Source: a bacterium | GTDB taxonomy: Bacteria > Babelota > Babeliae > Babelales > UBA12409 | Reading direction: 5' to 3' | NCBI GenBank assembly: GCA_021823685.1 | Contig: JAKANL010000003.1 | Span: 18,189 to 82,188 of the forward strand | DNA: 64,000 bases | In this document: positions 8,981 to 58,919 of the stretch, piece by piece | How positions within the stretch are numbered: position 1 is the first letter of the stretch | Layout: each line of letters begins with the position of its first letter | Position numbers and translations under genes: made by a program | Notes under the pieces: model-generated | The model's input: only the letters and a program-made list of their open reading frames with translations | What the model was told of the DNA's origin: nothing | The model's database searches: none

Positions 8981-9811
8981 ATGCGGAAACTACTTTTTCT
9001 TTGTTTGTGTTTACCTGGCCTATGTCACGCCATGTCCACCAGCCAAGAAAGTACCTTCTCAATCGTAGACGCCTATGCAAGCGATACGCGTTTAGTTGAT
9101 CACATCGCTAATCAAGAAAATTCCCCGCTTATTAAGCGTTTAATCACCCATGGTTCACGATTGCTTGCCATCCCAGAACCAACCGTATGTGTTTCAATTT
9201 TTGATGCGCCTTTTTGCGCAGCAACTCGCCAATCAAATCCCCCCGTTATTTTTGTCTATCCTAGCTTTGAAGATCTCCCTTACCCTAAAAAAAAGCTCGT
9301 CCTTTTTCACGAACTTTATCACTGTCTACAAAAACGAACGGTTGGCCTTAACGGGCCCATAAATCCGTCAAAGTACCCCCGCGGGCGCGATCAAGAAGCC
9401 GATTTGCAATCCATTTTAATGGCAAATTGCCCATCATGCGCTCACGACATCGTCGGCTTTTCGCCGGATTCAGAGCAAGAATATGCATCATCGCTAGAAA
9501 TTGCCGCACTAGCCGAAACACTGAAAGACTCGCCACTATGCCCTTACCACCGTATCGTTTCCAACCGGCCAACCTATCGCCTTTCAAGCTTGGTTTACCA
9601 TGTAGCCAAAAAAATATGCCCTGAAAGCTTCCTGACTCACGAACGCATGAACCAAGCAACGCCAGATAGCATCCTGGGATTCCTGCGAGTGGCCGGGCTT
9701 TGGGCTATCAGCATACCTGCTCAAAACAACAAGCTATTTTTCAGCTTCGCCAACCGCTGGATCGGCCGTGACGTTGAAGAAAAAATCGCCAAAGGCGAAT
9801 TAGACGTTTAA
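8981..9811 (+). CDS. hypothetical secreted Cys-rich protein, paralog B, with HExxH (HELYH) motif; possible metallopeptidase
   Basis: 276-aa ORF with signal-like MRKLLFLCLCLPGLCHA. Contains ...KKLVLFHELYHCLQ.... Tandem paralog of 8042-8830. No family recognised. Confidence 0.65.
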   Translation: MRKLLFLCLCLPGLCHAMSTSQESTFSIVDAYASDTRLVDHIANQENSPLIKRLITHGSRLLAIPEPTVCVSIFDAPFCAATRQSNPPVIFVYPSFEDLPYPKKKLVLFHELYHCLQKRTVGLNGPINPSKYPRGRDQEADLQSILMANCPSCAHDIVGFSPDSEQEYASSLEIAALAETLKDSPLCPYHRIVSNRPTYRLSSLVYHVAKKICPESFLTHERMNQATPDSILGFLRVAGLWAISIPAQNNKLFFSFANRWIGRDVEEKIAKGELDV

Positions 9812-15307: not shown

Positions 15308-15500
15308 GCGGAGTAAAAAGCTACAATCTTCGATAGAGCGCCGACACACGCGGATCCGTCTCCGCCACGTACCCGCCATAGCCCACATGGGCGACGGCCG
15401 GGTTCGCCTGCCTGTTTTTCGAAGCTCAATGAGCGAAGTAAAAAGCTTCGCCGAACGCAGCAGGGTAAGCGGACGCATGGTGAATTTAAAGCGAACAGGA
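15296..15500. repeat. GC-rich palindromic intergenic repeat cluster, copy R1
   Basis: Contains (rc) CGAAGCTTTTTACTTCGCTCATTGAGCTTCGAAAAACAG at 15412-15450, and ACCCGCCATAGCCCACATGGGCGACGGCCGGGTTCG, which matches the rc of 26908-26939. Related units occur at 26790-27025, 27255-27440, 32895-33070 and 58920-59169. Confidence 0.65.
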
Positions 15501-21921: not shown

Positions 21922-22089
21922 ATGAAGAAATATGTGCCATGGATTGTTGTTGTCGGCCTTTTGATTGCCGGCCTTACGGCTTGGTACGTCTACAGTGCGG
22001 GTCATCCAACAATACAAACACCTACGTGCCCTACAGGGTCATCATGTCCTGAGGTTATAAAAGAGGCTAGGGATATGTCCGGAGTATAG
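21922..22089 (+). CDS. mini membrane protein, tandem paralog 1 (55 aa)
   Basis: ATG after AAAGGAG gives MKKYVPWIVVVGLLIAGLTAWYVYSAGHPTIQTPTCPTGSSCPEVIKEARDMSGV. Below the ORF-track size cut-off; translated manually. Confidence 0.5.
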   Translation: MKKYVPWIVVVGLLIAGLTAWYVYSAGHPTIQTPTCPTGSSCPEVIKEARDMSGV

Positions 22090-22131
22090 CCATCTGAAGA
22101 GTCATAGAAAAAATGTTATTAGGAAAATCGT

Positions 22132-22320
22132 ATGAAGAGATATTTACCATGGCTTGTCGCCATCGGCCTCATAATCGCCGGCGCTACGGTTTGGTACGTG
22201 TACAGCGATGCCACGAGCAGTGAAAGCACGCCAACAAAAACAAAACAATGCTCGGGATGCCCCAAAACTGAAACCGAAGATGAAGTTATAAAAGTGACTG
22301 AGGCTATATCCCCAATGTAG
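22132..22320 (+). CDS. mini membrane protein, tandem paralog 2 (62 aa)
   Basis: MKRYLPWLVAIGLIIAGATVWYVYSD...CSGCP...EVIKVTEA. The same leader AGAAAAAATGTTATTAGGAA.ATCGT precedes paralogs 2 and 3. Confidence 0.55.
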   Translation: MKRYLPWLVAIGLIIAGATVWYVYSDATSSESTPTKTKQCSGCPKTETEDEVIKVTEAISPM

Positions 22321-22357
22321 CCGAAGGGTCACAGAAAAAATGTTATTAGGAAGATCG

Positions 22358-22474
22358 TTGAAGAGATATTTACCATGGTTCATCGCGATTGGGCTTATCA
22401 TCGCCGGCGCCACGGTTTGGTTTACGGTCAACAACATAAAAAAATCCGATCATCCAACCGTGCAGACCGGATAA
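22358..22474 (+). CDS. mini membrane protein, tandem paralog 3 (38 aa, TTG start; possibly decaying)
   Basis: LKRYLPWFIAIGLIIAGATVWFTVNNIKKSDHPTVQTG. The start context CGTTGAAG versus CGTATGAAG in paralog 2 suggests a 1-nt loss that destroyed the ATG. Confidence 0.35.
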   Translation: MKRYLPWFIAIGLIIAGATVWFTVNNIKKSDHPTVQTG

Positions 22475-22511
22475 AAAGGTAGCATAAGCTAAAATGTAAA
22501 AACCCCTTTTC

Positions 22512-22598
22512 GGCTGGCTCAAGTTGGTCGAATCTGGCGCGCAAGAAATCACGATCGAAAGCCAGGATGACGAGCACTACACGATAACGGGAAAATGA
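22512..22598 (+). pseudogene. 3' remnant of an EndoU-immunity-family gene
   Basis: GGCTGGCTCAAGTTGGTCGAATCTGGCGCGCAAGAAATCACGATCGAAAGCCAGGATGACGAGCACTACACGATAACGGGAAAATGA is near-identical to the last ~85 nt of 26420-26785 (…WLKLVESGAQEITIESQDDEHYTITGK*). There is no upstream ORF. Confidence 0.75.
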
Positions 22599-22615: not shown

Positions 22616-23761
22616 TTAATTCGGCCTGGTCCCCTCGCCCAGGATAGTAAGATATCGCGCATACACAAATCGCCGCCCACGTTTTTTACCGGTAATTTCT
22701 TTCAAGATCCCGATTTTTTCAAATTGATTGATCAGATTTGAAGCCGCTTGATGAGAAAGCTTAAATTCACGCTGTACATCGCTAACACGTATTAACGGCG
22801 TATAAAAAAGCTTATCTAATAACATGATTGCAAGCGGTGATGATATCCTTCTTTTTCCAAGCAGCGCCTGATGTGTTTCGCGTAACTGTAGTATGCGTTT
22901 AATGTTTTCAGTAGCATCTTGGCATGTTTGGATAACGCCAACCAAAAAAAACTCTACCCACTGCTCATAATCGCCTTTTTCGCGTACAAGCGTAAGCCGA
23001 TCATAGTATTCTTGACGATTTTTTTTCAAATAATAACTCAAATACAAAAGAGGCTTTTTAAGAATGCCACGCCAATAAAGATAAAACGTGATAAGTAAGC
23101 GTCCCAACCGTCCGTTGCCGTCCAAAAAGGGGTGGATGGTTTCAAACTGATAGTGAATCAACGCGCAGTTGATCAGTTCCGGCATCACCGATTTTTTATG
23201 CATGTATACTTCAAGATCGCCCATGGCTTTTAACGCCTCAGCTGGCGTTGGCGGAACGTAACGAGCCGTTTTCATGGTACAGCCAGGAGCTCCGATCCAA
23301 TTTTGTATTTTTTTAAATTCGCCGGGTGTCTTTTCTGCGCCGCGTACACCCTTAAGCAAAATCGCATGCAACTCTTTGATAAGCTTCAGGCTCATAGGTA
23401 ATGAATCGAGTCGATCGATACCATAGTGAAGCGCTTTAATATAATTTACAACTTCGACAACATCATTGACGTTTTCAAGCTTGGCACCACTTTCGAATTC
23501 AAAGACGTCTTCAAGCGAGGCTTGCGTACCTTCGATCTGGGCGCTCAATAATGCTTCTTTTTTTACGTACATGGTAATAAAAAGATCGGTGTTGGGCAGG
23601 GCATAAGCCATACCGTCCAAACGTGCAAGATGGAGAGTCGCATCCCACAGAAGTTTTTGCATGTTCTCGTTAATATTAATCGCTGGATGCGGCGGCAAGG
23701 ATGTTGGTACAAAAGCCTTGAACCCAGCCGGTTGATTTACATAAATACCACTTCGATTCAT
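22616..23761 (-). CDS. Fic-family protein (AMPylase-type) with N-terminal inhibitory-helix motif and C-terminal wHTH
   Basis: 381 aa. Fic motif HPFLDGNGRLGRLL (HxFx[D/E]GNGRxxR). N-terminal SAQIEG fits (S/T)xxxE(G/N). The C-terminus looks like a winged helix. Confidence 0.9.
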   Translation of the reverse strand: MNRSGIYVNQPAGFKAFVPTSLPPHPAININENMQKLLWDATLHLARLDGMAYALPNTDLFITMYVKKEALLSAQIEGTQASLEDVFEFESGAKLENVNDVVEVVNYIKALHYGIDRLDSLPMSLKLIKELHAILLKGVRGAEKTPGEFKKIQNWIGAPGCTMKTARYVPPTPAEALKAMGDLEVYMHKKSVMPELINCALIHYQFETIHPFLDGNGRLGRLLITFYLYWRGILKKPLLYLSYYLKKNRQEYYDRLTLVREKGDYEQWVEFFLVGVIQTCQDATENIKRILQLRETHQALLGKRRISSPLAIMLLDKLFYTPLIRVSDVQREFKLSHQAASNLINQFEKIGILKEITGKKRGRRFVYARYLTILGEGTRPN

Positions 23762-24056: not shown

Positions 24057-26423
24057 GTGAAGCGATTGGGAATATTTTTTGCACTTACCGTGCAAGGGTT
24101 GGGGGCAATAAATAGCGAAGTACAATGGCACGATCTTCAAGATTTTTGTATGGGTTTACGGGAAAGTCCTTCGCCCATAAAAGTCCAGTCGAGAAACGAA
24201 TTTGTTGATGGTGGTTCGGCGCTTATTGATTGGGTTGTTCGGCAACATGATTACGGACCTGTAGATTACGAAAATTTTCAAAGCTCACCGAGCGAACAAA
24301 CTTCTTCGCAGAAAGATACTGCGTCACCAACAGATTCCGTTCAGCCCCTAGGCGGGAGGCCCCGCTTCGCTCAAGCTTCCGCCTTCGCTAAAGCTACTGC
24401 GGACAAGATGGCGGACAGGTCTCCGGGCAGCCAGCGATTGACCCCGAAATCCCCCGCTCACTGTTTGAAAAAACTCTCCACTCACAAAAAACTCTCCGCT
24501 CACACTGAGCTTGTCGAAGTGTGCCCATCTTCTCGCCCAGGGCAACACCCGCAGGGCAAGACCCAAAATTTAAAAAATGTTAAAAAAGCTGCAGTTTTCA
24601 AAAGCATGCTCCAACAAAGTAGTAGTATTTCGCAAGTCAAATTGCTTTATACAAACTACTGTTCGCAACTCGATAACCATTTGCTCAATCCAGCCAACTA
24701 CCAGTTGATCGATAAGCGCGTTCGTGCGCTCAAAGCAACGCTCGATCATCCGGGCCAGATTCAGGAGCGAAACATAAAATTTTCAGCGCAAGAACGAGCC
24801 GAGCTTTTAAAATCTGGCGTATCGGCGGCAGCTCTCGCCTCTCTGCGTGGCAGTGCCGCGCAGCTTGAACTGCACGAAGAATACACGTCCGTCTTTGAGC
24901 AATGGGCACAAAAGAGCCACGAAATCCGACGCTCGCTCGTGCAAGAAAGTATTGCGCAGATAACATTACAGTTTGCTGATCTTGCCGATGAATGTAATCG
25001 TAGCAATAATCTTGCTGGCAGTTACGCCATGGCCGACGTTATGCACGCGGCGTGGCAGAGTGTGCAAGAATTTTTTACGCTGGCCAAAGCGACAGCACAG
25101 GTCGATTACGAAGTTCTGGGCATACTGGGCGCAAGCGCGCTTGACGGAGCTCTCTGTGCCGGCTGTTCAACGGCGCAGGCGATCAGCCATCCGGTTCAAA
25201 CGCTCAAGGCTCTTGGCTCAACAATTGCGCGCGTAGCATATACGGCAGATATTTTGCTCGGTAATGATAAGCAGCGCAGTGCCCAAACGCGCGCTGAACT
25301 TTATGCCATGCTCAAGGCAGCAGCCAACGAATTGTCTGCCAAAGCACAATCCCAACACCCCCTCATGACGTTCAGTGACTGCGTATCCGGCGGCACGCAG
25401 TTTGTTGCCGAAGGCGTATTGGCTTCCAAATGCATGACGCTATCAGCAAACGTTCTGAGCAAAAGCGCACAAGCACTTAACAAACTTCCTGAACTGGCAA
25501 AAACAGCCGGCACCAAAATCCGCTTGCCCCTCACCGGCCCACAACGCGAACTGGCTCTTGCGCACGCCCAGGCAAGTATAGGTGAGGGATTTATTGAGGA
25601 AATGGCCCGCGCACAGACAGGTATTAGCGGAGCCCGGCGTAGCCCGATCGTAGCCACGCCCAGCCGTCGCCAAGGGCTATGGCGGGCACGGGTCGAAGAG
25701 GGGCGAAGACGGGTGCTCAAGCAAGAGCAAGAGGCGGTTCAAAAGATACCGGCTCAACAGGCTACTCCAAACGCTTCTGCCGGTTTACAATCGCAAAAAC
25801 CGTCTGCCCAACCGACGACGCCAGTTTCTCCTTCCGGTTTGCAGCCAGCCGTGCCGGGAAAACCGTCGGTTACCACCGCTTTTCCCGGGCCGTTACCAGC
25901 GCCGGGTACCCAGCAACTGCTCAAAGTGTTTGCCCTGCCAGAGCAGCAACGTGCGGCAATTATTGCGCGATACGGCAAACCCATTCCAGAAATTGGTGGC
26001 GGACAATTTAAAAATCCGCTTCACTTAATTGCGATTGATGTGAGAAAAATTGATCAAAAAACGGGTATTGTCAAAGAGTGGATGGGTTTTCACCATGATT
26101 ACCAGCATGTGTTTGAACGTAACAATGTGATTACCTTAACCGAAAAACAAAATTTGGGCGGAGGATTTTACAAAGCAAAACCAATATATGGCACGCAAAT
26201 TCCGAAGTGGAAATCGTTTTTCCCTGCCGAGTGGCCACCGGAAAAGGTTTTTGAAAAGGTTATCGAAGCACACAATAATATAAAAGATATACTGCCTGCG
26301 AGGGGTGGCAGGAAAGAATTAATTGGTTGGCTTGAGCATGAACAAAAAGCAATATCGATTATCGTTGATGACAACAAAGATATTATTACCGCATATCCGA
26401 ATTTTTCTTACCGAGGAAGATGA
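24057..26423 (+). CDS. Sec-signal polymorphic-toxin-like protein with EndoU-like RNase C-terminal domain (copy 1)
   Basis: GTG start after GGGGAG. Signal-like MKRLGIFFALTVQGLGA. The C-terminal ~170 aa read ...PLHLIAIDVRKIDQKTGIVKEWMGFHHDY...KSFFPAEWPPEKVFEKVIEAHNNI...ISIIVDDNKDIITAYP. This fits my memory of the bacterial EndoU nuclease toxin pattern (HIL.G...G.H...K..FP..W....I......I.VV.....I.TAYP). No Rhs/YD, LXG, PAAR or haemagglutinin repeats recognised. Confidence 0.75.
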   Translation: MKRLGIFFALTVQGLGAINSEVQWHDLQDFCMGLRESPSPIKVQSRNEFVDGGSALIDWVVRQHDYGPVDYENFQSSPSEQTSSQKDTASPTDSVQPLGGRPRFAQASAFAKATADKMADRSPGSQRLTPKSPAHCLKKLSTHKKLSAHTELVEVCPSSRPGQHPQGKTQNLKNVKKAAVFKSMLQQSSSISQVKLLYTNYCSQLDNHLLNPANYQLIDKRVRALKATLDHPGQIQERNIKFSAQERAELLKSGVSAAALASLRGSAAQLELHEEYTSVFEQWAQKSHEIRRSLVQESIAQITLQFADLADECNRSNNLAGSYAMADVMHAAWQSVQEFFTLAKATAQVDYEVLGILGASALDGALCAGCSTAQAISHPVQTLKALGSTIARVAYTADILLGNDKQRSAQTRAELYAMLKAAANELSAKAQSQHPLMTFSDCVSGGTQFVAEGVLASKCMTLSANVLSKSAQALNKLPELAKTAGTKIRLPLTGPQRELALAHAQASIGEGFIEEMARAQTGISGARRSPIVATPSRRQGLWRARVEEGRRRVLKQEQEAVQKIPAQQATPNASAGLQSQKPSAQPTTPVSPSGLQPAVPGKPSVTTAFPGPLPAPGTQQLLKVFALPEQQRAAIIARYGKPIPEIGGGQFKNPLHLIAIDVRKIDQKTGIVKEWMGFHHDYQHVFERNNVITLTEKQNLGGGFYKAKPIYGTQIPKWKSFFPAEWPPEKVFEKVIEAHNNIKDILPARGGRKELIGWLEHEQKAISIIVDDNKDIITAYPNFSYRGR

Positions 26424-26785
26424 TGAAAAAACTGGTATTGGTCGATAGCGAGCATGGCTACTGGAAGACGAAAGAAGATTTTGATGATGATATGGATCTT
26501 TTAAGAGCATTTCTGAATAGCAATCCAGTGCCTGACCTAAAAGAGTTTCTTGACGATCTCAATAAAGATTGGGAATTCGGGGGGGGGGATCTTGTAAATT
26601 TTGAACGTCATGATGGCCAAATAACGTTGGGCTATGATTTTGAGGACGACGGACACAAATTTACGATCAAAGAAAGTGAACTCGAAAAACTTATCATCGA
26701 CTGGCTCAAGTTGGTCGAATCTGGCGCCAAAGAAATCACGATCGAAAGTCAGGATGACGAGCATTATACGATAACGGGAAAATAG
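26420..26785 (+). CDS. candidate cognate immunity protein (copy 1)
   Basis: 121-aa ORF whose ATG overlaps the toxin stop (ATGA). Acidic. Paralogs sit in the same position after toxin copies 2 and 3. No family recognised. Confidence 0.7.
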   Translation: MMKKLVLVDSEHGYWKTKEDFDDDMDLLRAFLNSNPVPDLKEFLDDLNKDWEFGGGDLVNFERHDGQITLGYDFEDDGHKFTIKESELEKLIIDWLKLVESGAKEITIESQDDEHYTITGK

Positions 26786-27136: not shown

Positions 27137-27265
27137 ATGAATAGGTATGTATTACTTAGCCTGTTTGCTGCAATCTTTGTTACGGCTTTAGCAGACAGAA
27201 AATACGTCTGTAAGGTGGTTAGGGACCGCGTTGTATGCGTATACGATCCCAGCGCTTCCAGCTAA
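27137..27265 (+). CDS. small secreted peptide candidate (42 aa)
   Basis: ATG 7 nt after AAGAGGAG gives MNRYVLLSLFAAIFVTALADRKYVCKVVRDRVVCVYDPSASS (signal-like, then a Cys-containing tail). Part of track ORF 27023-27265. Confidence 0.4.
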   Translation: MNRYVLLSLFAAIFVTALADRKYVCKVVRDRVVCVYDPSASS

Positions 27266-27440
27266 GTTTCTCACCCCGCTCGTTGAGCTTCGAAAAACAG
27301 ACAAGTGCGAAGTAGGGGCCTGTTTGCCGCAATCTTTGTTACGGCTTCAGTTAAAGCATTTCTTGTCGACCTGTTCTGCGAAGCTTTTTACTCCGCTCGC
27401 TGAGCTTCGAAAAATAGGCAAAAGCGAAGCAGAAAGATAT
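27255..27440. repeat. GC-rich palindromic intergenic repeat cluster, copy R3
   Basis: Two units of ...CCGCTCG(T/C)TGAGCTTCGAAAAA(C/T)AG... (27275-27300 and 27379-27417). Also a duplicated fragment of the small-peptide gene (GCCTGTTTGCCGCAATCTTTGTTACGGCTTCAG, about 27318-27350). Confidence 0.65.
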
Positions 27441-29761: not shown

Positions 29762-31331
29762 GAACCGATAAATACCCAGGTTCTGGAGAATTTTTCGCTG
29801 TTCCCGATGAGCTCCCTGCCGAGCTCGTAGCGCCTTCAGCAGAAGGCGTAATCACGATTTGTGGCGCATCGGCACTGGTTAATCCACATGACTCTTTTTT
29901 AAGTACAATGTCGGACAAGTCTTGGTTCGCTGCTGCTAAATCAAGGCGTTGATCCACCATGAGCTTAATGCCAGCCTGCACAAGTTCGGCATATCGCACT
30001 CGCTCAACGTCACTCCAATTTTTAAAGTCACCAACAAAAACCAGGCAAATCGCCGACGTCATCGTAAAATCGATTTGACTAAGCGCTGGCACACGCGTCC
30101 CCTTAACAATCTCCAACAGATCTTGCGTGATAGGAGCTTGCTGAGCAAGCGCCTCAAATCCCAACGCACCACGAAACTTTGCGTAATGTGCAAAATCGTC
30201 AGTTGGATCGGAAAACTGTTGAATACGATTCAATAATTCGACGACAATTTTTAAATGATACCTTTGTCCCGTTGCATCTTGGCTTCCAAACGGATCCCAT
30301 ATACGCAAACAAGTATCATACAAAGCGCTGAGCGATTCTTTCCCATCGGTAGCAATAAACTTTTTCATCGATTCAGGAGTAGGGTCGCTTGGTAGCGCAT
30401 CAATAACGGTTTTGAGTTGTTCAAATGTTGTACCACTGTTGTATAGCTGGTCCAAACACCACACAAAAAGCTCGACAAAGTTTACCTGCATTTCCTGCGG
30501 GAAGCGCTGTATTTGAGGATCATTGGAGCAAAAGGCAACAACATCCTGCCAAAGCTCTTCCTGGGTCAATTGGCTATTTTGATGAACGCGTAAATAGGCG
30601 GCAAGCATATCAGCAAAGAGGTCCTTTTCAAAACCAGCATTGTAATAGGCATTGAAGGGAATGCGATAGCCGCGGCGAACACGCAATTCATTGAACATGA
30701 TCGCGACAGCCGTCGAAAGTGCATATAACGAGACTAGACCGGTTTTTCTGTATTCATTTTTAAGAGCATCAATCTGAGAACACATATATACGTCTCCGGC
30801 AATTACCCCGCTGCAAATAAGGAGCTTGAGCCAGAAATTATATCGATCAGTAATATTAGCCGCTGCTTTTCCCATCAAAATCGCGGCACTCATTGAGATA
30901 CCGCTGCGATTGACGGCATGCGCTAAAACGTTAGCACCCACTTGAGCGGTTGTTATCCCCAGCGTTAAAAGAACATCTTTTGCCCATCGCGGCAATTTTT
31001 GCACATATACCGAACAGCACCCGGGCTCTTCTTCGCGTACCCCGCCAGCCTGCCCAGCAACTGGGCTCATTGACGAACTGGCAGCGGCCGGCGCAGATGG
31101 CCCAGCGGGCGAACCAGAATCAGAAGACATCTCGCCCATTTCAACAGCGCAAGGCGCGGCTAAAAGCGATTGTTTGAGTTCTTTCTGACGTGCAATAACT
31201 AATTTTTCTTTGCCATCATCGCGCTCCATACCGATCAAAGGCATAAAGGCCAGACACAACATGGCGTATAAGACATGACGAGAATTCATAGTACCTCCAT
31301 TAAGTACTTCTTTAGCTACCATAATCCCCAT
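29748..31331 (-). CDS. hypothetical secreted membrane protein (family member 3, long C-terminal extension)
   Basis: 527-aa ORF. The N-terminus MGIMVAKEVLNGGTMNSRHVLYAMLCLAFMPLIGMER is near-identical to that of 31719-32753. Hydrophobic middle. No family recognised. Confidence 0.65.
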   Translation of the reverse strand: MGIMVAKEVLNGGTMNSRHVLYAMLCLAFMPLIGMERDDGKEKLVIARQKELKQSLLAAPCAVEMGEMSSDSGSPAGPSAPAAASSSMSPVAGQAGGVREEEPGCCSVYVQKLPRWAKDVLLTLGITTAQVGANVLAHAVNRSGISMSAAILMGKAAANITDRYNFWLKLLICSGVIAGDVYMCSQIDALKNEYRKTGLVSLYALSTAVAIMFNELRVRRGYRIPFNAYYNAGFEKDLFADMLAAYLRVHQNSQLTQEELWQDVVAFCSNDPQIQRFPQEMQVNFVELFVWCLDQLYNSGTTFEQLKTVIDALPSDPTPESMKKFIATDGKESLSALYDTCLRIWDPFGSQDATGQRYHLKIVVELLNRIQQFSDPTDDFAHYAKFRGALGFEALAQQAPITQDLLEIVKGTRVPALSQIDFTMTSAICLVFVGDFKNWSDVERVRYAELVQAGIKLMVDQRLDLAAANQDLSDIVLKKESCGLTSADAPQIVITPSAEGATSSAGSSSGTAKNSPEPGYLSVHARR

Positions 31332-31520
31332 AGTTATATCCTAACAAATATATTCAATTTGTCAACCAATACAACAAAATAATTCAAAATAAGCAAAATA
31401 AGTAATGTATATTTTTATCGCCAAGATTAAGTATGAAAGAGGCTAAAAGATTGTCAACAAGGGGAAAAACGACTGTCATAGCAACGTGATAATGTCATAT
31501 TCACTGCAACAGAAAATATC

Positions 31521-31718: not shown

Positions 31719-32753
31719 TTAAACCGCTTGCGCAGATTGCGCTTTAACTAATTTTGCTTTCAATACTTCTTGAAGCTTTGGTATCGCACCTAGATCCCTC
31801 CACGCAATGACCTTTTCTACTTGAAGACTCGCGCGATCAAGATCACGGACTTCCCAGCCAAAAGCGCGCGCATCTTCTTGATAGAGTGAACGAATAGCGG
31901 CCACTCGTTGCGTAAGGGTTGCGGGTGTACGATCATCACGCTCAATCTTTTGGAGCGCATCAATTACTTTAGGCGCCACGCTTAAGGCCAAGGCCAATTC
32001 GCGCAATGTCCATCTGCGTGCTTCGCTCACCGCTTCGCGTTTATTTTTTTCAACCATTATGCTTGAAAGGCCAGTAAGTCCCATCGCCACAGCAAGAAAA
32101 CCAGTGTGCGGACAATGCATCTGCCCAGCGCGCGCTAAAAACCAATTAGTTGTCACGTCAACAGGCACTTCAATGCCAACCGCTAAGGCTTTGCCCCAAA
32201 AGGCATATTTTGCCAGTGGGCCATAACCCATAGCAACGCCCGTTGCGGCATGAATAAGCGCGGGCACCAACTCATTGCCCCCAAATGCATCCTCTGCCGA
32301 CGCTGCTAATGTGGTAGCTAAAAGTATTGAGACAACGAGGGTGTTTCGCGTTCCCTGCGATAAGCCGCGCCAGGAATCGGTGATATGGTTCCCGCACGAA
32401 TGCATACTTTCTCTGACACGCTGCCAGCAGCTTGGGCTTGGCCGAGCGGCATCACGATGCACCACGACAATCGGCGTTTTGGTCGGAGAAGATTCAACAA
32501 CGCTCGTATTAGGCATAGCTAAAGCGGCAGATGGTGCAGCAGCACCAGAACCCATGTCGCTCATTTCAACAGCAGGCGCTGCTAAAAGAGGCCTTCTAAA
32601 TTCGCTCGCCCAACCGGACTTTTTGCCCTTGCTATCGAAACGCTCCATGCCGATTAATGGCACAAAAGCCAGACAGAGCATGGCGTATAAGACGTGACGA
32701 GAATTCATCGAGCCTCCATTTATGAATACTTCTTTAGTTCCAATAATTCCCAT
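31719..32753 (-). CDS. hypothetical secreted membrane protein (family member 4)
   Basis: 344-aa ORF with N-terminus MGIIGTKEVFINGGSMNSRHVLYAMLCLAFVPLIGMER. Paralog of 28856-29761 and 29748-31331. The upstream ~130 nt are also duplicated. Confidence 0.65.
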   Translation of the reverse strand: MGIIGTKEVFINGGSMNSRHVLYAMLCLAFVPLIGMERFDSKGKKSGWASEFRRPLLAAPAVEMSDMGSGAAAPSAALAMPNTSVVESSPTKTPIVVVHRDAARPSPSCWQRVRESMHSCGNHITDSWRGLSQGTRNTLVVSILLATTLAASAEDAFGGNELVPALIHAATGVAMGYGPLAKYAFWGKALAVGIEVPVDVTTNWFLARAGQMHCPHTGFLAVAMGLTGLSSIMVEKNKREAVSEARRWTLRELALALSVAPKVIDALQKIERDDRTPATLTQRVAAIRSLYQEDARAFGWEVRDLDRASLQVEKVIAWRDLGAIPKLQEVLKAKLVKAQSAQAV

Positions 32754-32894
32754 AGATACATCCTAATAAAATATTCAATTTGTCGGTTTAGAATCGGATT
32801 TAATTTAAAATAAGCAAAATAAATAATGCGTTTTTTGCTCCAACGTTAAGTATGAAAGAGGCTAAAATATTGTCAATAACTGGCCAAACGACCA

Positions 32895-33070
32895 GAATTT
32901 GCGAAAGCCACCCAAGCCGGACATTCTTCGCCATACTACGGCGGGCAGGCTTGGCCAAAGCGCATGTATAATGGGCGGCTGCGAAGTGCCAACAGGCCTG
33001 CCCGGTGAAGCTTTTACTCCGCTCGTCGAGCTTCGAAAAACAAGCAAGCGAAGTCGGGCGCGAATGCCAA
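32895..33070. repeat. GC-rich palindromic intergenic repeat cluster, copy R4
   Basis: Contains TGAAGCTTTTACTCCGCTCGTCGAGCTTCGAAAAACAAG (33007-33044), the same unit as 27379-27417 and rc 15412-15450. Confidence 0.65.
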
Positions 33071-36138: not shown

Positions 36139-37236
36139 ATGAATTTTCGTATTTTCTTTTTAGCGGCCGGCTTGTTTTTTGCTCCGGCGATGGGCATGTT
36201 TAAGTGTTGCATGTCCAGAAAACGTGCGGCCGATTATCACTCATTTGATTCGGCGACGCCATTAAGGGCCGAGCGTGCTGAACAGCCTCAGGCGAATATT
36301 ATTGTATCTACTCATGTCAAGCCTGATTTTACAAAAATGTTAGCCATTGTGAGAGCATTGTTCCCAAGAGCAGATACCCCTACAGCACTTAATTATGTAA
36401 AAATTCTAGCCTCGGGGCGGACTCAGCCTGTGCCAGTGTTTACTAAAGCGTTGATACCCTGCGAGCTCATATTTGGCAAATCGATTGCTGTTCGTTCTTC
36501 CGTTACTCACAACTATGGCAGCCCGGCGGTAAGCGCTGCGGCGTTGACCGCTGAGCAATGGAGAAAAATTGATATTGCTCTTGTGGAAGAGGGGAGAGAT
36601 GCCGCGTTGGCAATCATTATGAGTACCGGTGTCGATGTTGATGAAGCTGATCGCATACTTGTACAAATTGGCAAACAGCCACTCCGCGCACGATCAACCC
36701 CCCCACAAGCACATGCTGAAAGAAATTCTGACATAGAAAAATTAAATCAGCTTTATTCGGAAGGTTCGGCCGCTAAACCAGAAACGCGGGCATCCACTGC
36801 AAGGCGTGCGCCGTTGACTGCGGAGCAGTTGGCAAAAATTGAGGCTGCCCTCGCGAAAAATAACGCGGATGATGCGCTAGCCATTATTATGAGTGCTGGT
36901 ATCGGATTTGAGGAAGCTGACCGCATGCTTGCGCAAATAGGCAAAGAGCCAACTCGCACACCATCAATGCCGCTACGAGCACACGCTGGGGGAAGTTCAG
37001 GCATAGAAAGTGATCAGCTTTCTCGAGAAAGTTCGGCTGGCGGGTCCGAAACGCGGGCATCCACTGCAAGGCGTGCGCCACTGACTGCCGAGCAGCTAAC
37101 AAAAATTGAAGCGGCTCTCACTGAAAGTAGCGTAGACGCTGCATTGGCCGGCATTATGAACGCTGGCATCGAATTTGAAGAAGCTAACCGTATGCTTGTG
37201 CAAATGGGCAAAAAGTCGGTTCAGCCATTGTCATAG
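36139..37236 (+). CDS. hypothetical secreted protein with three ~75-aa tandem repeats
   Basis: 365 aa with signal-like MNFRIFFLAAGLFFAPAMG. Repeats LTAEQ(W/L).KI(D/E)-AL...DAALAIIMS.G...EEADR(I/M)L.QIGK occur three times (about 36535-36700, 36805-36950, 37085-37215). Confidence 0.6.
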   Translation: MNFRIFFLAAGLFFAPAMGMFKCCMSRKRAADYHSFDSATPLRAERAEQPQANIIVSTHVKPDFTKMLAIVRALFPRADTPTALNYVKILASGRTQPVPVFTKALIPCELIFGKSIAVRSSVTHNYGSPAVSAAALTAEQWRKIDIALVEEGRDAALAIIMSTGVDVDEADRILVQIGKQPLRARSTPPQAHAERNSDIEKLNQLYSEGSAAKPETRASTARRAPLTAEQLAKIEAALAKNNADDALAIIMSAGIGFEEADRMLAQIGKEPTRTPSMPLRAHAGGSSGIESDQLSRESSAGGSETRASTARRAPLTAEQLTKIEAALTESSVDAALAGIMNAGIEFEEANRMLVQMGKKSVQPLS

Positions 37237-37356: not shown

Positions 37357-37776
37357 TCAAGAAGCACTATTGGCGCTAAGAATACGCGTTATTTCTGCGT
37401 CATTATGTATCGCATAAACGCGGTAATCATCACCATCTTGCGTAATAAGTATTTTTGGCGGTTGTTGCGCGTAAACGGTTTTCCATTGCTCAAGAAGAGA
37501 AATGAATGACTGAACTGGAATTGAATATTCTTCATTCTCAGTTTCAGACCATTCATATGAGAGTTTAACTACCTTTCCATCCATTTCGTAGCACATGTCA
37601 TAAACCTGAACAAAACTTTCTTGTGGATTGCGTGCCCACGCAATAAAATCGTCGGCATCATATCTGACAATACCCCTCAAAAAATGCGCAGCAGCACAAA
37701 GCGATAACGAGGTTGCCTCGTTATCTTCAATGGTATAGCTTATGATTTCTGATTTTTTCAAAATAATGTAACTCAT
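37357..37776 (-). CDS. candidate immunity protein of the orphan EndoU module
   Basis: 139-aa ORF whose ATG abuts the stop of the orphan toxin module. The C-terminus ...SFISLLEQWKTVYAQQPPKILITQDGDDYRVYA distantly parallels ...LEKLIIDWLKLVESGAKEITIESQDDEHYTI of immunity copies 1-3. Confidence 0.55.
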   Translation of the reverse strand: MSYIILKKSEIISYTIEDNEATSLSLCAAAHFLRGIVRYDADDFIAWARNPQESFVQVYDMCYEMDGKVVKLSYEWSETENEEYSIPVQSFISLLEQWKTVYAQQPPKILITQDGDDYRVYAIHNDAEITRILSANSAS

Positions 37777-38229
37777 TTATACGACTGCCTTAAAATTTTC
37801 TTCCCAGGGATAAACCGTAATAACTTTACCGTTTCTAATGCATGTTACAATAACCATCCCATCATTTGTCTTCCCCATAAAAATTCCCGTCTTGCTCTCA
37901 TAGGAAATCTCATTATTCCATGATTCAACAATTTTTTTGGCGAGTCCATCCATGGTCCACTGCGACGGAAAAAGCGTAGCCTTTGGTTTTATAACATCGC
38001 CTATTTTTAATTTACATAAAACAGCTCCACTTGAGTGTACTTTTGGTTCGATCAGTTGAACTTTACCAGCTTTTTGCAATGCGCCATTCTGATCCCAGTG
38101 AAATCCAAAAATTTTAGTTTTGCGTTTGGCCGGATTATAGCGTACATCGGCAGCGAGGATGTGCCACAGATCAATGGATGCTATCTTAACGGGTAACTGA
38201 GGCTGCTGTGCAACAGTTATAACATGTGC
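37777..38229 (-). pseudogene. orphan EndoU-like toxin C-terminal module without a canonical start
   Basis: The frame is open from the TGA at 38232-38230 down to 37777 and reads AHVITVAQQPQLPVKIASIDLWHILAADVRYNPAKRKTKIFGFHWDQNGALQKAGKV...KATLFPSQWTMDGLAKKIVESW...GMVIVTCIRNGKVITVYPW. That is a complete divergent EndoU-type pattern. The only start-like codon is a TTG at 38079, inside the domain. Confidence 0.6.
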
Positions 38230-38241
38230 TCAAGTTAACCG

Positions 38242-38610
38242 CTATTTTCCCGTTATCGCGTAGTGCTCGTCATCCTGACTCTCGATGGTAATCTCTTTTG
38301 CGCCCGATGCGACGAGCTTGAGCCAGCCGATCAAAATCTTTTCAAGCTCACTTTCTTTGATGGTGAATGAGGGCCCATCTTCTTCGAATTCGTAACTTAG
38401 CTTTATATAACCATCATGGCGTTCAAGAGTAATAAGATTTCCTCCAGCAGAATCCCAATCTTTATTTTTTTGTAAGAACTCGAGGCTGTATTCGAGAAAA
38501 TCGGGGCAATCACCAACTAAAAATAGCATTAAAAATCCAAAGCCCGCTTCAGGCTCTTCTTTGGGTTTCCAATAGCCCGACTTACTTTCAAATAGAACCA
38601 TTTTTTTCAT
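38242..38610 (-). CDS. candidate cognate immunity protein (copy 2)
   Basis: 122-aa ORF with ATGA overlap with toxin copy 2. Its C-terminal half is near-identical to copies 1 and 3; its N-terminal half is diverged. Confidence 0.7.
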   Translation of the reverse strand: MKKMVLFESKSGYWKPKEEPEAGFGFLMLFLVGDCPDFLEYSLEFLQKNKDWDSAGGNLITLERHDGYIKLSYEFEEDGPSFTIKESELEKILIGWLKLVASGAKEITIESQDDEHYAITGK

Positions 38611-41042
38611 TTTTTTACTTTCTTCAATAAATCCGGATACGCCGTAATGATATTCTTACTCTTATCGATAATAATTTTTATTGCTTTTTGTTCAGTTTCG
38701 AGCCACCCAACCAGTACCTGTCTACCCGCTTCTGCTGGATAAATTTCCTTTATATTTCCATATGCCTCAAGAACTTTCTCAAAGACTTTTTCTGGCGGCC
38801 AGTCTGCTGGGAAAAATGATTTGGGAGTCGGTTTTTGCATTCCATATTTTGCCTCTTTAACAAAATAAAAACCACCACCATAATCAAGCTTGTTAGGCAA
38901 ACTAATCACATTATTTCGCTCAAGCACACATCGGTAATCATGGTGAAATCCCATCCATTTTTCAACAAGGCCACTTTTTTGATCAATTTTTCTGACGTCA
39001 AGCGCAATCAAATGGAGCGGTTGTGTAAAACATGCACCACCAATTTCCGGAATCGGTTTGCCATATCGCGCAATAATCGCTGCACGTTGTTGCTCCGGCA
39101 GGGCAAACACTTTGAGCAATTGCTGGGTACCCGGCGCGGGTAACGGCCCGGGAAAAGCGGTGGTAACGGTTGGTTTCTCAGGTACGGCTGGTTGCAAACC
39201 GGAAGAAACTGGCTTCGTCGGCTGAGCAAGCGGATTCTGCGGCTGTGACCCTGAAGAAGCTCCTGCTGGCTGGGTGGGTATTTTTTGAGCCGCCTGTTGC
39301 TCTTGCTTGAGCAGATTGCTGGCAAGCGATTTTTTCGGCGCATGGGCAAGCTCTTCGGCAAAGCCCTCGCCGATACTGGCTTGTGCATGAGCAAGGGCGA
39401 ATTCGCGCTGTGAGCCGGCAAGCGGCAAGCGGATTTTGGTGCCCGAGGCCCTGTCCGCCATCTTGTCCGCCATAGTCTTGACGACGGCGGAAGTCTTGAC
39501 GGCGGCGGAGGCTTTTGCCAGCGCGGGAAGTTTGTTAAGTGCTTGTGCGCTTTTGTTCAGAACGTTTGCCGATAGCGTTAAACATTTGGAAGCCAATACG
39601 CCTTCGGCAACAAACTGCGTACCGCCGGATACGCAATCACTGAACGTCATGAGAGGGTGTTGGGACTTAGCTTTGGCACACAATTCGTTGGCTGCTGCCT
39701 TGAGCATGGCATAAAGTTCAGCGCGCGTTTGGGCACTGCGTTGCTCATCATCGCCGAGCAAAATATCTGCCGTATATGCCACGCGTGCAATTGTTGCACC
39801 GAGAGTTTTCAGCGAGGCGAAAAGATTTTCGGCTGTTTGAAGGGGATGAACAACCATCTGCGCTGTTGAGCAGCCGGCACAGAGAGCTCCGTCAAGCGCG
39901 CTTGTGCCCAGTATGCCCAGAACTTCGTAATCGACCTGTGCTGTCGCTTTGGCCAGCGTAAAAAATTCTTGCACACTCTGCCACGCCGCATGCATAACGT
40001 CGGCCATAGCGTAACCGCCAGCAAGATTATTGCCGCGGTTAAACGCATCGGCACATTCGGCAAATTGCAGCGCAATATGCGCAATATGTTCTTGAACGAG
40101 CGAGCGTCGGATTTCGTGACTCTTTTGCGCCCATTGTTCAAAGACGGACCTGTATTCTTCGTGCAGTTCTACCTGCGCAGCGTTACCACGCAGGGGAAGA
40201 AGTGCAGCCGCTGGCATACCAGCTTTTGTAAGCTCAGTCCGTTCCTGCGCTGAAAGTTTTATGTTGCGCTCGTGCAATTGCCCCGGGTGATCAAGGGTTG
40301 CTTTGAGCGCACGAACGCGTTTATCGATTATTTGGTAACTGGTTGGATTAAGCGAACGGTTATCGAGCTGTGAACAGTAGTTTGTGTAGAGTTGTTTGGC
40401 CTGCCCTGCGGAGCCTTGGCAAAGCGGGGTTTGAGCAATACTGCTGTTTTGTTGGAGCATGTTTTTTGCCGCGATAGTTGTCTTAAAATGATTTTGAGCC
40501 TTTGCGCTCACTGTTGTGGTCTGAGCCGAATGCTCGAACTTCTCGTTCGGGGTCGACAGGCGAGCGGCCACCTTGGGAGCGCAGGGTTTCCAAAGGGGTT
40601 TACCCCCTTTGGCGTGGGGATTGGAAAGGGCCGAACGAGGGGTCCTTTCCGGCCTCCCGCGTAGGGGCAAAACTGAATTTGATATGGTAACGTTCTGCGT
40701 AGAATGGTACTCACAATGTCTCTGCGCGTTCTCGTACTCTTGGCAAGCCTGTATCCATCGTTGTTCGCGCATCTGCTCAATAATTTCAAAGTTTTCTGGC
40801 ATACTCTGATGGTCGGTTCGATATGATACGTCTATCTGTACAGGATTGTGGTACGTTAATGCGTCACTTGATCGAGGCAAACACATTCGTATAGTAGCCG
40901 ATTCTGGCCATTGAACGTGCAAAGCTTGCTCTTTGTGTTGTCTTAACAAAGCCGTCTGGGCAGCCAGCTTAATATCACGTGCTGGCAAATTACTTTGACA
41001 AGCAATACTTGTCAGAAAAATAACTACTCTCAATCGTTTCAC
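38607..41042 (-). CDS. Sec-signal polymorphic-toxin-like protein with EndoU-like RNase C-terminal domain (copy 2)
   Basis: 811 aa. GTG start after AGGGG. Signal-like MKRLRVVIFLTSIACQS. Central region near-identical to copy 1. C-terminus ...HLIALDVRKIDQKSGLVEKWMGFHHDY...KSFFPADWPPEKVFEKVLEAY...IKIIIDKSKNIITAYP. Confidence 0.75.
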   Translation of the reverse strand: MKRLRVVIFLTSIACQSNLPARDIKLAAQTALLRQHKEQALHVQWPESATIRMCLPRSSDALTYHNPVQIDVSYRTDHQSMPENFEIIEQMREQRWIQACQEYENAQRHCEYHSTQNVTISNSVLPLRGRPERTPRSALSNPHAKGGKPLWKPCAPKVAARLSTPNEKFEHSAQTTTVSAKAQNHFKTTIAAKNMLQQNSSIAQTPLCQGSAGQAKQLYTNYCSQLDNRSLNPTSYQIIDKRVRALKATLDHPGQLHERNIKLSAQERTELTKAGMPAAALLPLRGNAAQVELHEEYRSVFEQWAQKSHEIRRSLVQEHIAHIALQFAECADAFNRGNNLAGGYAMADVMHAAWQSVQEFFTLAKATAQVDYEVLGILGTSALDGALCAGCSTAQMVVHPLQTAENLFASLKTLGATIARVAYTADILLGDDEQRSAQTRAELYAMLKAAANELCAKAKSQHPLMTFSDCVSGGTQFVAEGVLASKCLTLSANVLNKSAQALNKLPALAKASAAVKTSAVVKTMADKMADRASGTKIRLPLAGSQREFALAHAQASIGEGFAEELAHAPKKSLASNLLKQEQQAAQKIPTQPAGASSGSQPQNPLAQPTKPVSSGLQPAVPEKPTVTTAFPGPLPAPGTQQLLKVFALPEQQRAAIIARYGKPIPEIGGACFTQPLHLIALDVRKIDQKSGLVEKWMGFHHDYRCVLERNNVISLPNKLDYGGGFYFVKEAKYGMQKPTPKSFFPADWPPEKVFEKVLEAYGNIKEIYPAEAGRQVLVGWLETEQKAIKIIIDKSKNIITAYPDLLKKVKK

Positions 41043-57050: not shown

Positions 57051-57149
57051 TACTCTTCATGCGCTCCCTCTAAAAAACCCTACCCTGAATAACACGTAGC
57101 ATAATAAACGTTATTCAAGCAATGCTTTTGCCCGCTATAAGCCCCACTC

Positions 57150-57179
57150 TAGAAATATTTTTTGGCAATGAGCTAAGCT
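57150..57179 (+). promoter_or_regulatory. candidate promoter (TAGAAA-18-TAAGCT) of toxin copy 3
   Basis: TAAGCT at 57174-57179 lies within a ~27-nt block shared with 33215-33241. The -35 is weaker than in the other two copies. Confidence 0.3.
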
Positions 57180-57208
57180 GTCACTTTGTCTTTTTTAGGA
57201 GGGTTGGC

Positions 57209-58554
57209 GTGAGACAGTTGTGGATCGTTTTTTTACTTGCCGCGCAAAGCATAATAGCAGTCGATTGGATGGTGCCGCCGCGCATTTTACGCCAGCAAGA
57301 AACAGCAATCGCAGTGGCGTTTTTGCCACAAAAAACGCCACTGCAAGTTCAGTCACAAAACGAGTTTGTCGATGGCGGTTCTGCGCTTATGGATTGGGTC
57401 ATCCGGCAGCGTGATTACATGCCTGCATATCACGAAAGCATTCCAACCCCAGAAAATACTGTGTCGCCAACAAACCAAAATAATAATCAGCCTAAAAAAG
57501 TCGTGCTCGCGCATGCTTCCGCCGTCGCTAAAGCTAAGGCGGACAGGTCTTCGGGCAACTGGCGATCGACCAAAAAAACAACTGGTCAAGCCAACGCGGC
57601 TGCTGCGGCCGTCTTGCGGAAGCAACAGATAAAACAACTCTACACAAACTTCTGTTCACAACTCGATAATAAAACAATTGATACCAAGAATTACCAAATA
57701 ATCGATAAACGCGTTCGCGCACTCAAAGCAACTCTCGACCATCCTGGTCAGATTCAGGAACGAAGCATAAAATTTTCAGCGCAAGAACAAGCCGAGCTTT
57801 TAAAATCTGGCGTGCCAGCAGCGGCGCTTACTTCGCTACGCGGCAACGCTGCGCAAGCCGAACTACACGAAGAATACGGGTCAGTTTTTGAACAGTGGGC
57901 ACAAAAGAACAGCAGACTGCCCAACAAATATCCACCCAGCAAGCAACACCGATTTCTTCTCCCGGCCTACAACCAGCTGTTTCTGAAAAACCAATCGTTA
58001 CCGCCGCTTTTTCTGGGCCATTACCAGCGCCTGGCACCCAACAGTTGCTCAAAGTGTTTGCGCTGCCCGAACAGCAACGGAAGGCAATTATTGCCCGATA
58101 CGGCAAACCAATTTCTGAAACAGATGGCCTTTGTTTTAAGAATCCACTCCATTTGATAACAATTGATGTGAGAAAAATTGATCAAAAAACTGGTATCGTC
58201 AAAGAGTGGATGGGATTCCATCATGATCATTTAAATACACTTGAGCGGAACAATGTTGTCAAAATAACCAGCAGGAATGATTTTGGTGATAGTTTTTATG
58301 AAGCAATCGTAGCGTATGGAACGCAAGTGCCAAAGAAAAAATCTTTTTTCCCAGCCGAATGGCCGCCGGAAAAAGTCTTTGAAAAAGTTCTTGAGGCCTA
58401 TGAAAACATTATCGAAACAACTTCAACAAACTCAGGTGGACAAAAAATAATTGGTTGGCTTGAAAAGGAGCAAAAAACAATCGAGATTATAATGGACAAA
58501 AACAGGAATATTATTACAGCATACCCAAAACTGCTATACGAGGGGTCCAAATGA
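57209..58554 (+). pseudogene. EndoU-like toxin copy 3, internally deleted (~0.8 kb) and frameshifted
   Basis: GTG 57209 after AGGAGG gives VRQLWIVFLLAAQSIIA. Homology to copy 1 runs to ...FEQWAQK (about 57900), then jumps to ...EQQTAQQISTQQATP... in another frame (track ORFs 57122-58156 and 57895-58554). The C-terminal EndoU-like domain is intact (GFHHDH...KKSFFPAEWPPEKVFEKVLEAY...IITAYP). Confidence 0.7.
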
Positions 58555-58919
58555 AAAAATTATTTCTATATAAAAGTGCATGCGGCTATTGGAAACCAAA
58601 AGAGAGCCTCGATTCAAACATGGAGCTTCTCTGGTCTTTTTTCGCTGACGATTCAATCAAATTTCTCGAATATAGTCTGGAATTTTTACAAAAAAACAAA
58701 GATTGGGAATCCGCGGGGGGCGATGCTATCGATCTTAGACGCCATGATGGCCAAATAACTTTAAGTTACGAATTCGAAGAAGATGGACCATCGTTTACGA
58801 TCAAAGAAAGTGAGCTGGAAAAGATTCTTGTCGGATGGCTTAAATTGGTCAAATCGGGCGCAAAGGAAATCATGATCGAAAGCCAAGATGATGAGCATTA
58901 TACGATAACGGGAAAATAG
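58551..58919 (+). CDS. candidate cognate immunity protein (copy 3)
   Basis: 122-aa intact ORF with ATGA overlap with the toxin remnant. Closest to copy 2 (…FLEYSLEFLQKNKDW.SAGG…). Confidence 0.7.
   Translation: MKKLFLYKSACGYWKPKESLDSNMELLWSFFADDSIKFLEYSLEFLQKNKDWESAGGDAIDLRRHDGQITLSYEFEEDGPSFTIKESELEKILVGWLKLVKSGAKEIMIESQDDEHYTITGK

Follow-up and report, generated by a model that had tools for sequence, protein, structure and literature searches.

Diverged putative EndoU toxin/immunity cassettes in a Candidatus Dependentiae genome: amino-acid constraint and signs of old recombination

Cassettes, orphan module and remnants

The 64,000-nt stretch of DNA analyzed here (the window; positions 18,189 to 82,188 of contig JAKANL010000003.1, GenBank assembly GCA_021823685.1) belongs to Candidatus Dependentiae (TM6), a group of obligate protist associates. 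The RadA protein that it encodes shares 59-63% identity with RadA of Candidatus Dependentiae/Babeliales metagenome-assembled genomes. It carries three diverged toxin/immunity cassettes, in which a large gene with a predicted C-terminal EndoU ribonuclease (RNase) domain is followed by a small putative immunity gene, and one promoterless orphan module. An earlier note on this DNA had described two near-identical "arms", one immediately before the toxin domain and one in the 3' half of the immunity gene, bracketing a variable toxin core and a variable immunity N-terminal half, and had interpreted them as the mark of cassette exchange by homologous recombination under diversifying selection. The open reading frame (ORF) maps of the three cassettes agree with the coordinates and layout it gave, and every peptide string that it quoted was found in our alignment.

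The toxin gene of cassette 1 (C1) is an ORF of 788 aa on the forward strand (24057..26423), with the Pfam domain PF14436 at residues 676-781 (E 2.2e-5). Its product consists, in order, of a signal-peptide-like N-terminus, a variable N-region, a conserved helical body, a P/Q/S-rich linker, a pre-toxin segment and the C-terminal EndoU RNase. The pre-toxin arm (TAFPGPLPAPGTQQLLKVFALPEQQRAAIIARYGKPIPEIGG) covers 42 codons at 25860..25985, and the nuclease core with its variable loops follows at 25986..26423. The C1 immunity gene (26420..26785, forward strand) encodes 121 aa and divides into a variable N-half (26420-26659) and a conserved C-half (26660-26785). The second cassette (C2) lies on the reverse strand; its toxin ORF of 811 aa (38607..41042; PF14436, E 2.8e-6) contains the pre-toxin arm at about 39051-39176, and its immunity gene of 122 aa (38242..38610) has the conserved C-half at 38242-38370. 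In all three cassettes, the end of the toxin gene and the start of the immunity gene share 4 nt (ATGA).

The toxin of cassette 3 (C3), on the forward strand at 57122..58554 (PF14436, E 2e-8), is disrupted. About 900 nt of its body, equivalent to C1 24916-25824, are deleted and the frame is shifted at about 57909, so that at the junction (57909-57952) the sequence ...EQWAQK is joined out of frame to the linker region. What remains is a 344-aa ORF and a 219-aa ORF (GTG at 57895), the latter of which still has an intact EndoU domain preceded by the pre-toxin arm (57988-58113). The C3 immunity gene (58551..58919, forward strand; 122 aa; conserved C-half at 58794-58919) is intact.

The orphan module is located on the reverse strand directly behind C2. 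Its EndoU part (37777..38232) starts 10 nt after the stop of the C2 immunity gene, comprises 150 open codons, covers model positions 17-127 of 129 of PF14436 (E 2.8e-7) and has the catalytic residues, with 23-28% identity to the other toxin cores. The domain is complete but very divergent. No start codon precedes an internal TTG at 38079, and the N-terminal body and the pre-toxin arm are both missing. The orphan immunity gene (37357..37776, reverse strand; 139 aa) carries the motif of the immunity family and was recovered by the family profile (P0028, E 2e-29); with 16% identity to the C1 immunity protein, it is a distant member of the cassette immunity family. No nucleotide match was found between the orphan module and the three cassettes; therefore, the proposed arms cannot mobilize it.

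A relic of a further immunity gene, consisting of the last ~29 codons and the stop, lies at 22498..22598 on the forward strand and encodes ...WLKLVESGAQEITIESQDDEHYTITGK*. Its nearest counterpart is the C1 immunity gene: positions 22510-22596 are 93% identical to C1 26697-26783 over 87 nt (86% to C2 and 85% to C3), and positions 22498-22596 are 89% identical to C1 over 99 nt. The relic reported in the earlier note is thus real, but it does not coincide with the 126-nt 3' arm, of which it spans about the distal two thirds. Together with the orphan module and the deleted C3 toxin, this relic at 22.5 kb is probably the ordinary debris of turnover in gene families of this type.

Predicted toxins, immunity proteins and export

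Judged from motifs and predicted fold, the C-terminal domain of every copy is an EndoU RNase. PF14436 (EndoU_bacteria) matches the C-terminal ~130 residues of all three toxins in Pfam, with E-values from 2e-5 to 2e-8. Against the curated cut-off of 25.3 bits, the C1 toxin (T1) scores 25.3 bits, exactly at the cut-off, the C2 toxin (T2) 28.1, the C3 toxin (T3) 35.1 and the orphan 30.4/31.4 bits. Among 11 sequences including the orphan, little or no variation is seen at H63, G84-F85-H86-(H87)-D88, F129-P130, W133 and T185-Y187-P188, and the motifs H, GFHHD, FP..W and TAYP are conserved in the alignment with distant relatives. The toxin cores share 57-64% amino-acid identity across the compared toxin regions. 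For the AlphaFold2 (AF2) model of the C1 C-terminus, which has a mean predicted local distance difference test (pLDDT) of 81.5, the top PDB match in Foldseek is XendoU (2c1w; probability 1.0, E 3.5e-3), with a modest structural score (template modelling, TM, 0.43); a PDB sequence search with the toxin C-terminal (CT) region returned noise only. For the pre-toxin segment, the model of the C1 C-terminus shows an ordered LLKVF strand and an ordered EQQRAAIIARY helix beside the nuclease domain, and a disordered Pro-rich start.

The small downstream proteins are presumably immunity proteins. This assignment draws on the 4-nt overlap with the toxin genes and on unrelated contigs, where members of their family are again found directly behind EndoU toxins. 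When the three immunity proteins were used as a profile, they gave 22 matches among 1.84 billion representative proteins, which form a thin, diverse family of 120-135 aa, and members were found directly 3' of EndoU toxins in five other contigs (L002, L016, L018, L019 and L020). L002 and L018 hold the two closest relatives, where the toxin and immunity genes again overlap by 4 nt, and in L016 the member is preceded by a 311-aa EndoU protein (PF14436, E 2e-13). In L013 (5465-8369), the member P0008 follows an unrelated protein of 842 aa that ends in a weakly matched EndoU domain, while the members P0009 and P0018 lie on contigs of less than 1 kb, where no context is readable. Another metagenomic genome, rich in ankyrin genes, encodes a stand-alone EndoU protein of 202 aa followed by a 133-aa protein (L021, 8001-9033); the L013 and L021 genomes are both ankyrin-rich and probably intracellular. 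The family motif is F.I..F..LL..W..L....I.I, and W95, in the C-half, is the only invariant column in the alignment of 17 members.

The immunity proteins have no Pfam or NCBIfam match, the Pfam Imm families included; nor did they match the PDB by sequence profile (noise only) or by Foldseek fold search. Imm-SUKH, Imm-SuFu and Imm28, the families that have been linked to Tox-EndoU (PMC3482391), gave no sequence or fold match. The AF2 model of the C1 immunity protein (pLDDT 91), which shows a beta-alpha-beta-beta unit at residues 80-120, gives this unannotated family a confident fold prediction.

All three toxins start with a pair of basic residues followed by a hydrophobic stretch of 9-10 residues, a signal-peptide-like pattern that was judged by eye alone. 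No trafficking domain, be it of the types CdiA/two-partner secretion (TPS), Rhs/YD, MafB-N, LXG and PAAR or of any other known type, was matched in Pfam or NCBIfam at E<=1. A full-length toxin search of 5.8 billion proteins recovered only T1 and T2, a scan of GTDB genomes with T2 found no relatives, and BLASTP detected no carrier domain common to the EndoU proteins of the other contigs. The scan of metagenomes with the CT alignment A3 likewise gave no relatives, and the alignment A5 led to two distant loci, L019 and L020. By these comparisons the toxin body of ~550 aa appears specific to this genome among the sequences searched. According to published genomes, Dependentiae depend on Sec together with a type II system, and nucleases are among the many signal-peptide proteins that they export (PMC6561590, PMC4776705); the toxins would probably leave the cell by Sec and then by the type II secretion system (T2SS) or in vesicles. 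The T1 and T2 genes share, at 81% identity, a 54-nt segment encoding ...ADKMADR..., which is found close to the T1 N-terminus (24376-24429) but in the T2 linker (39440-39493); this suggests that it has moved within the gene family.

Conserved flanks, diverged interior and the history of the cassettes

Identity along the cassettes is far from uniform, by a margin far beyond chance. The sliding-window plot, which the earlier note had named as the test that could refute it, gives 0.83-0.95 in 60-nt windows of the pre-toxin segment and 0.5-0.8 in the EndoU core, then 0.43-0.60 in the 5' half and 0.73-0.90 in the 3' half of the immunity gene, and falls to ~0.3 right after the stop. Segment identities and the proportions of non-synonymous (pN) and synonymous (pS) differences were obtained from codon alignments by the Nei-Gojobori method with bootstrap. 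In the three pairwise comparisons, the pre-toxin arm (42 codons) has a nucleotide identity of 0.92/0.83/0.79, with pN of 0/0.076/0.075 and pS of 0.30/0.45/0.61, and the immunity C-half (43 codons) an identity of 0.79-0.81, with pN of 0.07-0.10 and pS of 0.55-0.74. Between them, the EndoU core (140 codons; identity 0.67-0.68, pN 0.21-0.22, pS 0.69-0.75) and the immunity N-half (identity 0.60-0.70, pN 0.23-0.30, pS 0.59-0.86) are diverged as the earlier note had said, with 67-68% and 60-70% identical nucleotides. Its description of the arms as near-identical stands for the protein but not for the DNA, where a level above 90% is reached by the C1-C2 pre-toxin arm alone. Perfect matches within the arms are at best 16-29 nt long, which does not surpass the core; they include a run of 29 nt shared by C1 and C2 in the pre-toxin arm (25869-25897) and one of 27 nt shared by C1 and C3 at the very 3' end of the immunity genes.

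The bootstrap intervals of pN do not overlap between the arms (0-0.10) and the interior (0.21-0.30). The contrast being mostly non-synonymous, it indicates purifying selection on the protein, and most of the difference between arms and interior is amino-acid constraint. The C-half of the immunity protein is also the better conserved part in distant homologues (0.56-0.59, compared with 0.39-0.41 for the N-half, for L002; 0.76 compared with 0.36 between L002 and L018). Protein constraint thus explains much of the 3' arm, much of which is the folding core of the immunity protein. One might go further and suppose that no recombination took place at all, and that old duplicates diverged in place with the arms merely their most constrained segments, in the toxin a structural extension of its domain and in the immunity protein the folding core. 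The non-synonymous nature of the contrast, the conservation of the immunity C-half across the whole family, the partial order of the pre-toxin segment in the predicted structure and the arm runs that are no longer than those of the core all fit this account. We nevertheless hold it to be unlikely, partly on account of the pre-toxin segment itself. In the 50%-identical homologue P0031 of L018, this segment is no more conserved than the core (0.40-0.47 vs 0.45-0.52). Its amino-acid identity of 93-100% within this genome therefore needs either homogenization or a lineage-specific partner.

Synonymous sites provide further evidence against divergence in place. For each pair of cassettes, identical codons at shared amino acids were compared with independent codon choice by exact convolution, giving an excess on a scale of 0-1. 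For the pair 1-2, the excess is 0.63 in the pre-toxin segment, 0.13 in the core, 0.03 in the immunity N-half and 0.29 in the C-half (arms 0.48 vs interior 0.10, P=4e-4), and for the pair 1-3 the corresponding values are 0.47, 0.18, 0.09 and 0.42 (arms 0.45 vs interior 0.15, P=0.01). The pair 2-3 shows no difference (0.30, 0.24, 0.35 and 0.13; arms 0.22 vs interior 0.28), which is what divergence in place would predict. The result is unchanged when the cassettes' own codon usage is applied. Constraint on the arms at the nucleotide level, such as RNA structure or regulatory sequence, was considered and ruled out, since the synonymous excess is missing in the pair 2-3; the signal thus reflects history. 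Common ancestry with the other cassettes is more recent for the flanks of C1 than for its interior.

The branch proportions also shift at the junction between the pre-toxin segment and the EndoU core, which divergence in place does not readily explain. Sites at which one copy is the odd one out fall in the ratio 48:17:9 (copy 3:2:1) before alignment codon 87 and 88:91:113 after it, and the maximum chi-square breakpoint coincides with this junction (codon 87; permutation P<0.0005, all sites). A further sign of exchange lies in the central body of the toxins. Here the pS between C1 and C2 is 0.00-0.25 across 25011-25480, and exact runs of 84, 61, 38 and 34 nt occur; the first 200 codons and the EndoU core, in contrast, have values of 0.7-1.0. 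Tracts with pS near 0 mean that gene conversion between C1 and C2 demonstrably happens, and they too speak against a history free of recombination. The 84-nt run (25047-25130 vs 39906-39989) and the 61-nt run (25275-25335 vs 39680-39740) stand in inverted orientation; they point to recent gene conversion and are also potential substrates for inverting the ~12.5-kb segment between the C1 and C2 genes. Together, the codon and breakpoint results support an old recombination or gene conversion with its boundary at the pre-toxin/EndoU junction. The synonymous divergence of 0.3-0.7 in the arms means that any exchange there is old.

The claim of cassette exchange by recombination consequently holds in part: the synonymous signal in the pairs 1-2 and 1-3 and the breakpoint are in its favor, but the signal is old, modest and missing in the pair 2-3. 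Diversifying selection was not borne out, as pN/pS is below 1 in every window and the synonymous distance (dS) is saturated. In its full form, the model of the earlier note has the arms maintained as recombination substrates for swapping blocks of toxin core and immunity N-half under diversifying selection. A mosaic with both flanks conserved, the synonymous evidence that the C1 flanks are younger than the interior, and the presence of an orphan module and of an immunity relic ending inside the 3' arm are all in line with such a model. We nonetheless regard it as quite improbable. Arms with exact runs of at most 29 nt and pS of 0.3-0.7 would be poor substrates today, the orphan carries neither arm, the cores form one gradually diverged EndoU lineage with no sharp cliff in identity, and pN/pS stays below 1 everywhere. 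Scans of proteins, GTDB genomes and metagenomes found no second strain with a swapped toxin/immunity combination. To our knowledge, CDI (contact-dependent inhibition), Rhs and MafB systems do not require a conserved arm within the immunity gene.

The reading that we consider, as a whole, more likely than not is a paralogous family, similar to polymorphic toxins, that was shaped by protein constraint and patchy gene conversion and encodes exported EndoU toxins with cognate immunity. Each cassette would produce an exported protein of ~800 aa ending in an EndoU RNase, translationally coupled to an immunity protein of 121-122 aa that presumably binds and blocks its own toxin. Strong purifying selection, visible in the pN values, holds the pre-toxin segment and the beta-alpha-beta-beta C-half of the immunity protein. 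Free to vary are several loops of the toxin and, at the N-terminus of the immunity protein, its two helices; it is probably through these loops and helices that the partners touch and that each pair co-evolves. Conversion between paralogues is recent in the central body of C1 and C2, as the synonymous sites show, and older in the pre-toxin segment and, more weakly, at the 3' end of the C1 immunity gene. The block formed by the toxin core and the immunity N-half of C1 has a deeper history than its flanks because conversion was patchy, with a breakpoint at the pre-toxin/EndoU junction.

Several points weigh against this interpretation. At third positions alone the breakpoint is marginal (P=0.04), and for pS (Nei-Gojobori, NG86) the intervals of the two immunity halves overlap. 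The comparison comprises only three sequences, with dS near saturation in the interior and wide segment intervals, and C3 is a pseudogene, which could distort the branch-length patterns. Rooting with the outgroups L002 and L018 draws on only 7 and 9 informative amino-acid sites, too few to be of use. The other assemblies of these loci are 99.99-100% identical to the window: L001 and L017 are the same strain, and P0003 is one residue off.

Relation to known toxin systems, possible targets and genomic surroundings

EndoU is well known among the domains of polymorphic toxins, systems whose textbook mechanism is recombination with stand-alone cassettes (PMC3482391, PMC4436062, PMC4287609). Among the known relatives are the EndoU toxins of CdiA-CT and an EndoU-type MafB toxin of Neisseria (PMC4287609). 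The cassettes resemble the Tox-EndoU polymorphic toxins (PMC3482391) in having a large exported protein with a C-terminal EndoU domain and an immunity gene immediately downstream, as well as several diverged copies, a start-less orphan module, relics and a conserved segment before the toxin domain. They differ from them in that all copies have the same toxin fold, the N-termini vary too, the body is genome-specific, the immunity protein is unmatched in Pfam, and the host is a member of Dependentiae. The toxin C-termini are more diverged than the central body, there is one orphan cassette, all copies are EndoU, and the recombination signal is old and modest. The likeness to CDI, Rhs and MafB loci that the earlier note had drawn therefore extends to cassettes of the polymorphic-toxin type, but what is found is one diverging EndoU lineage instead of unrelated domains swapped at a sharp boundary.

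Membership in the three named systems was examined and rejected in each case. For CDI, neither T1 nor T2 has a TPS or filamentous haemagglutinin (FHA) match in Pfam at E<=1, the alignment contains no VENN motif, and no CdiB-like gene was found among the neighbors scanned. For Rhs, there is no RHS/YD match in Pfam, and the PxxxxDPxGL motif is absent from the alignment. For MafB, no DUF1020 match was obtained in Pfam at E<=1, and the neighboring genes are Fic, ORFan and ankyrin genes. A promoterless, start-less toxin/immunity pair right after a full cassette (37357-38232) recalls the orphan cdiA-CT/cdiI and rhs-CT/rhsI modules; unlike the known ones, which retain a pre-toxin or core stretch for recombination, in this orphan no such homology to the full cassettes is detectable at the nucleotide level. 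The short tracts of near-zero synonymous divergence (25011-25480) inside old duplicates are reminiscent of concerted evolution among dispersed paralogues, with the difference that the conversion tracts here stop at the toxin-specificity block, so that the toxin/immunity pairs stay distinct. The locus is a clean example of synonymous sites separating conservation by constraint from conservation by recombination, and does not point to a new mechanism.

The target of the toxins may be sought in a competitor or in the host. An exported EndoU toxin would cleave RNA in the host or in a competing bacterium of the same infection; the producing cell and its kin would be shielded by the immunity protein. 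Obligate intracellular bacteria seldom carry toxin/immunity pairs; their toxins are as a rule aimed at the host and come without immunity genes (PMC3482391), and most toxins of intracellular bacteria have been argued to be directed at the host (Zhang et al. 2012, PMC3482391). The cassettes could accordingly encode host-directed effectors, with small proteins that protect the producer only before export and paralogues that diverged without any bacterial competition. The Dependentiae lineage, its export of signal-peptide nucleases and a neighborhood rich in ankyrin, Fic, DUF2608 and ORFan genes are compatible with this possibility. It seems rather unlikely to us, since the usual absence of immunity genes from host-directed toxins (PMC3482391) is at odds with a diverged immunity gene for each toxin copy, an intact immunity gene beside the disrupted C3 toxin and an orphan toxin/immunity module.

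Another intracellular, protist-associated bacterium, Odyssella (PMC3482391), which belongs to a different phylum, also has immunity genes beside its toxins, and adjacent immunity genes such as these were read as a sign of conflict between conspecifics (Zhang et al., PMC3482391). The diverged pairs, the orphan and the retained C3 immunity gene would suggest that the Dependentiae, as protist parasites, also fight each other. As a more specific proposal, which is tentative and on balance doubtful, the family may be a Dependentiae-specific weapon between co-infecting bacteria: an EndoU toxin exported by Sec/T2SS or in vesicles, with a lineage-specific carrier, an undescribed immunity fold and gene conversion that spares the specificity blocks. 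A full-text literature search retrieved no link between Dependentiae and polymorphic toxins.

Some features of the surrounding DNA deserve mention. Immediately upstream of the immunity relic, three tandem small ORFs of 55, 62 and 44 aa (21922-22474, forward strand) each contain one predicted hydrophobic helix (MK[KR]Y[VL]PW..IGLIIAG..VW) and share 76-86% identity over 63 nt, and a gene with Fic/Fic_N domains (22616-23761, reverse strand) separates the relic from the C1 toxin gene. A dispersed repeat of ~50 nt (15395-15458, 27254-27315, 27373-27432 and 33004-33060), of which two copies lie just downstream of the C1 immunity gene, contains the short palindrome CGAAGCT...AGCTTCG and is possibly an element like the repetitive extragenic palindromic (REP) sequences or a terminator. 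The orphan module adjoins an ORFan of 365 aa (36139-37236, forward strand), which contains a 267-nt unit repeated ~2.2-3 times (36476-37215; 61-77% identity). About 1 kb upstream of C3, a transposase of the insertion sequence family IS4/IS5 is encoded in two ORFs (55348-56156, forward strand; DUF4096 and DDE_Tnp_1). Paralogous stretches of 78-82% identity between neighboring genes (31203-31473 vs 32622-32892 and 8728-8830 vs 9709-9811) suggest that tandem gene duplication is common in the region.

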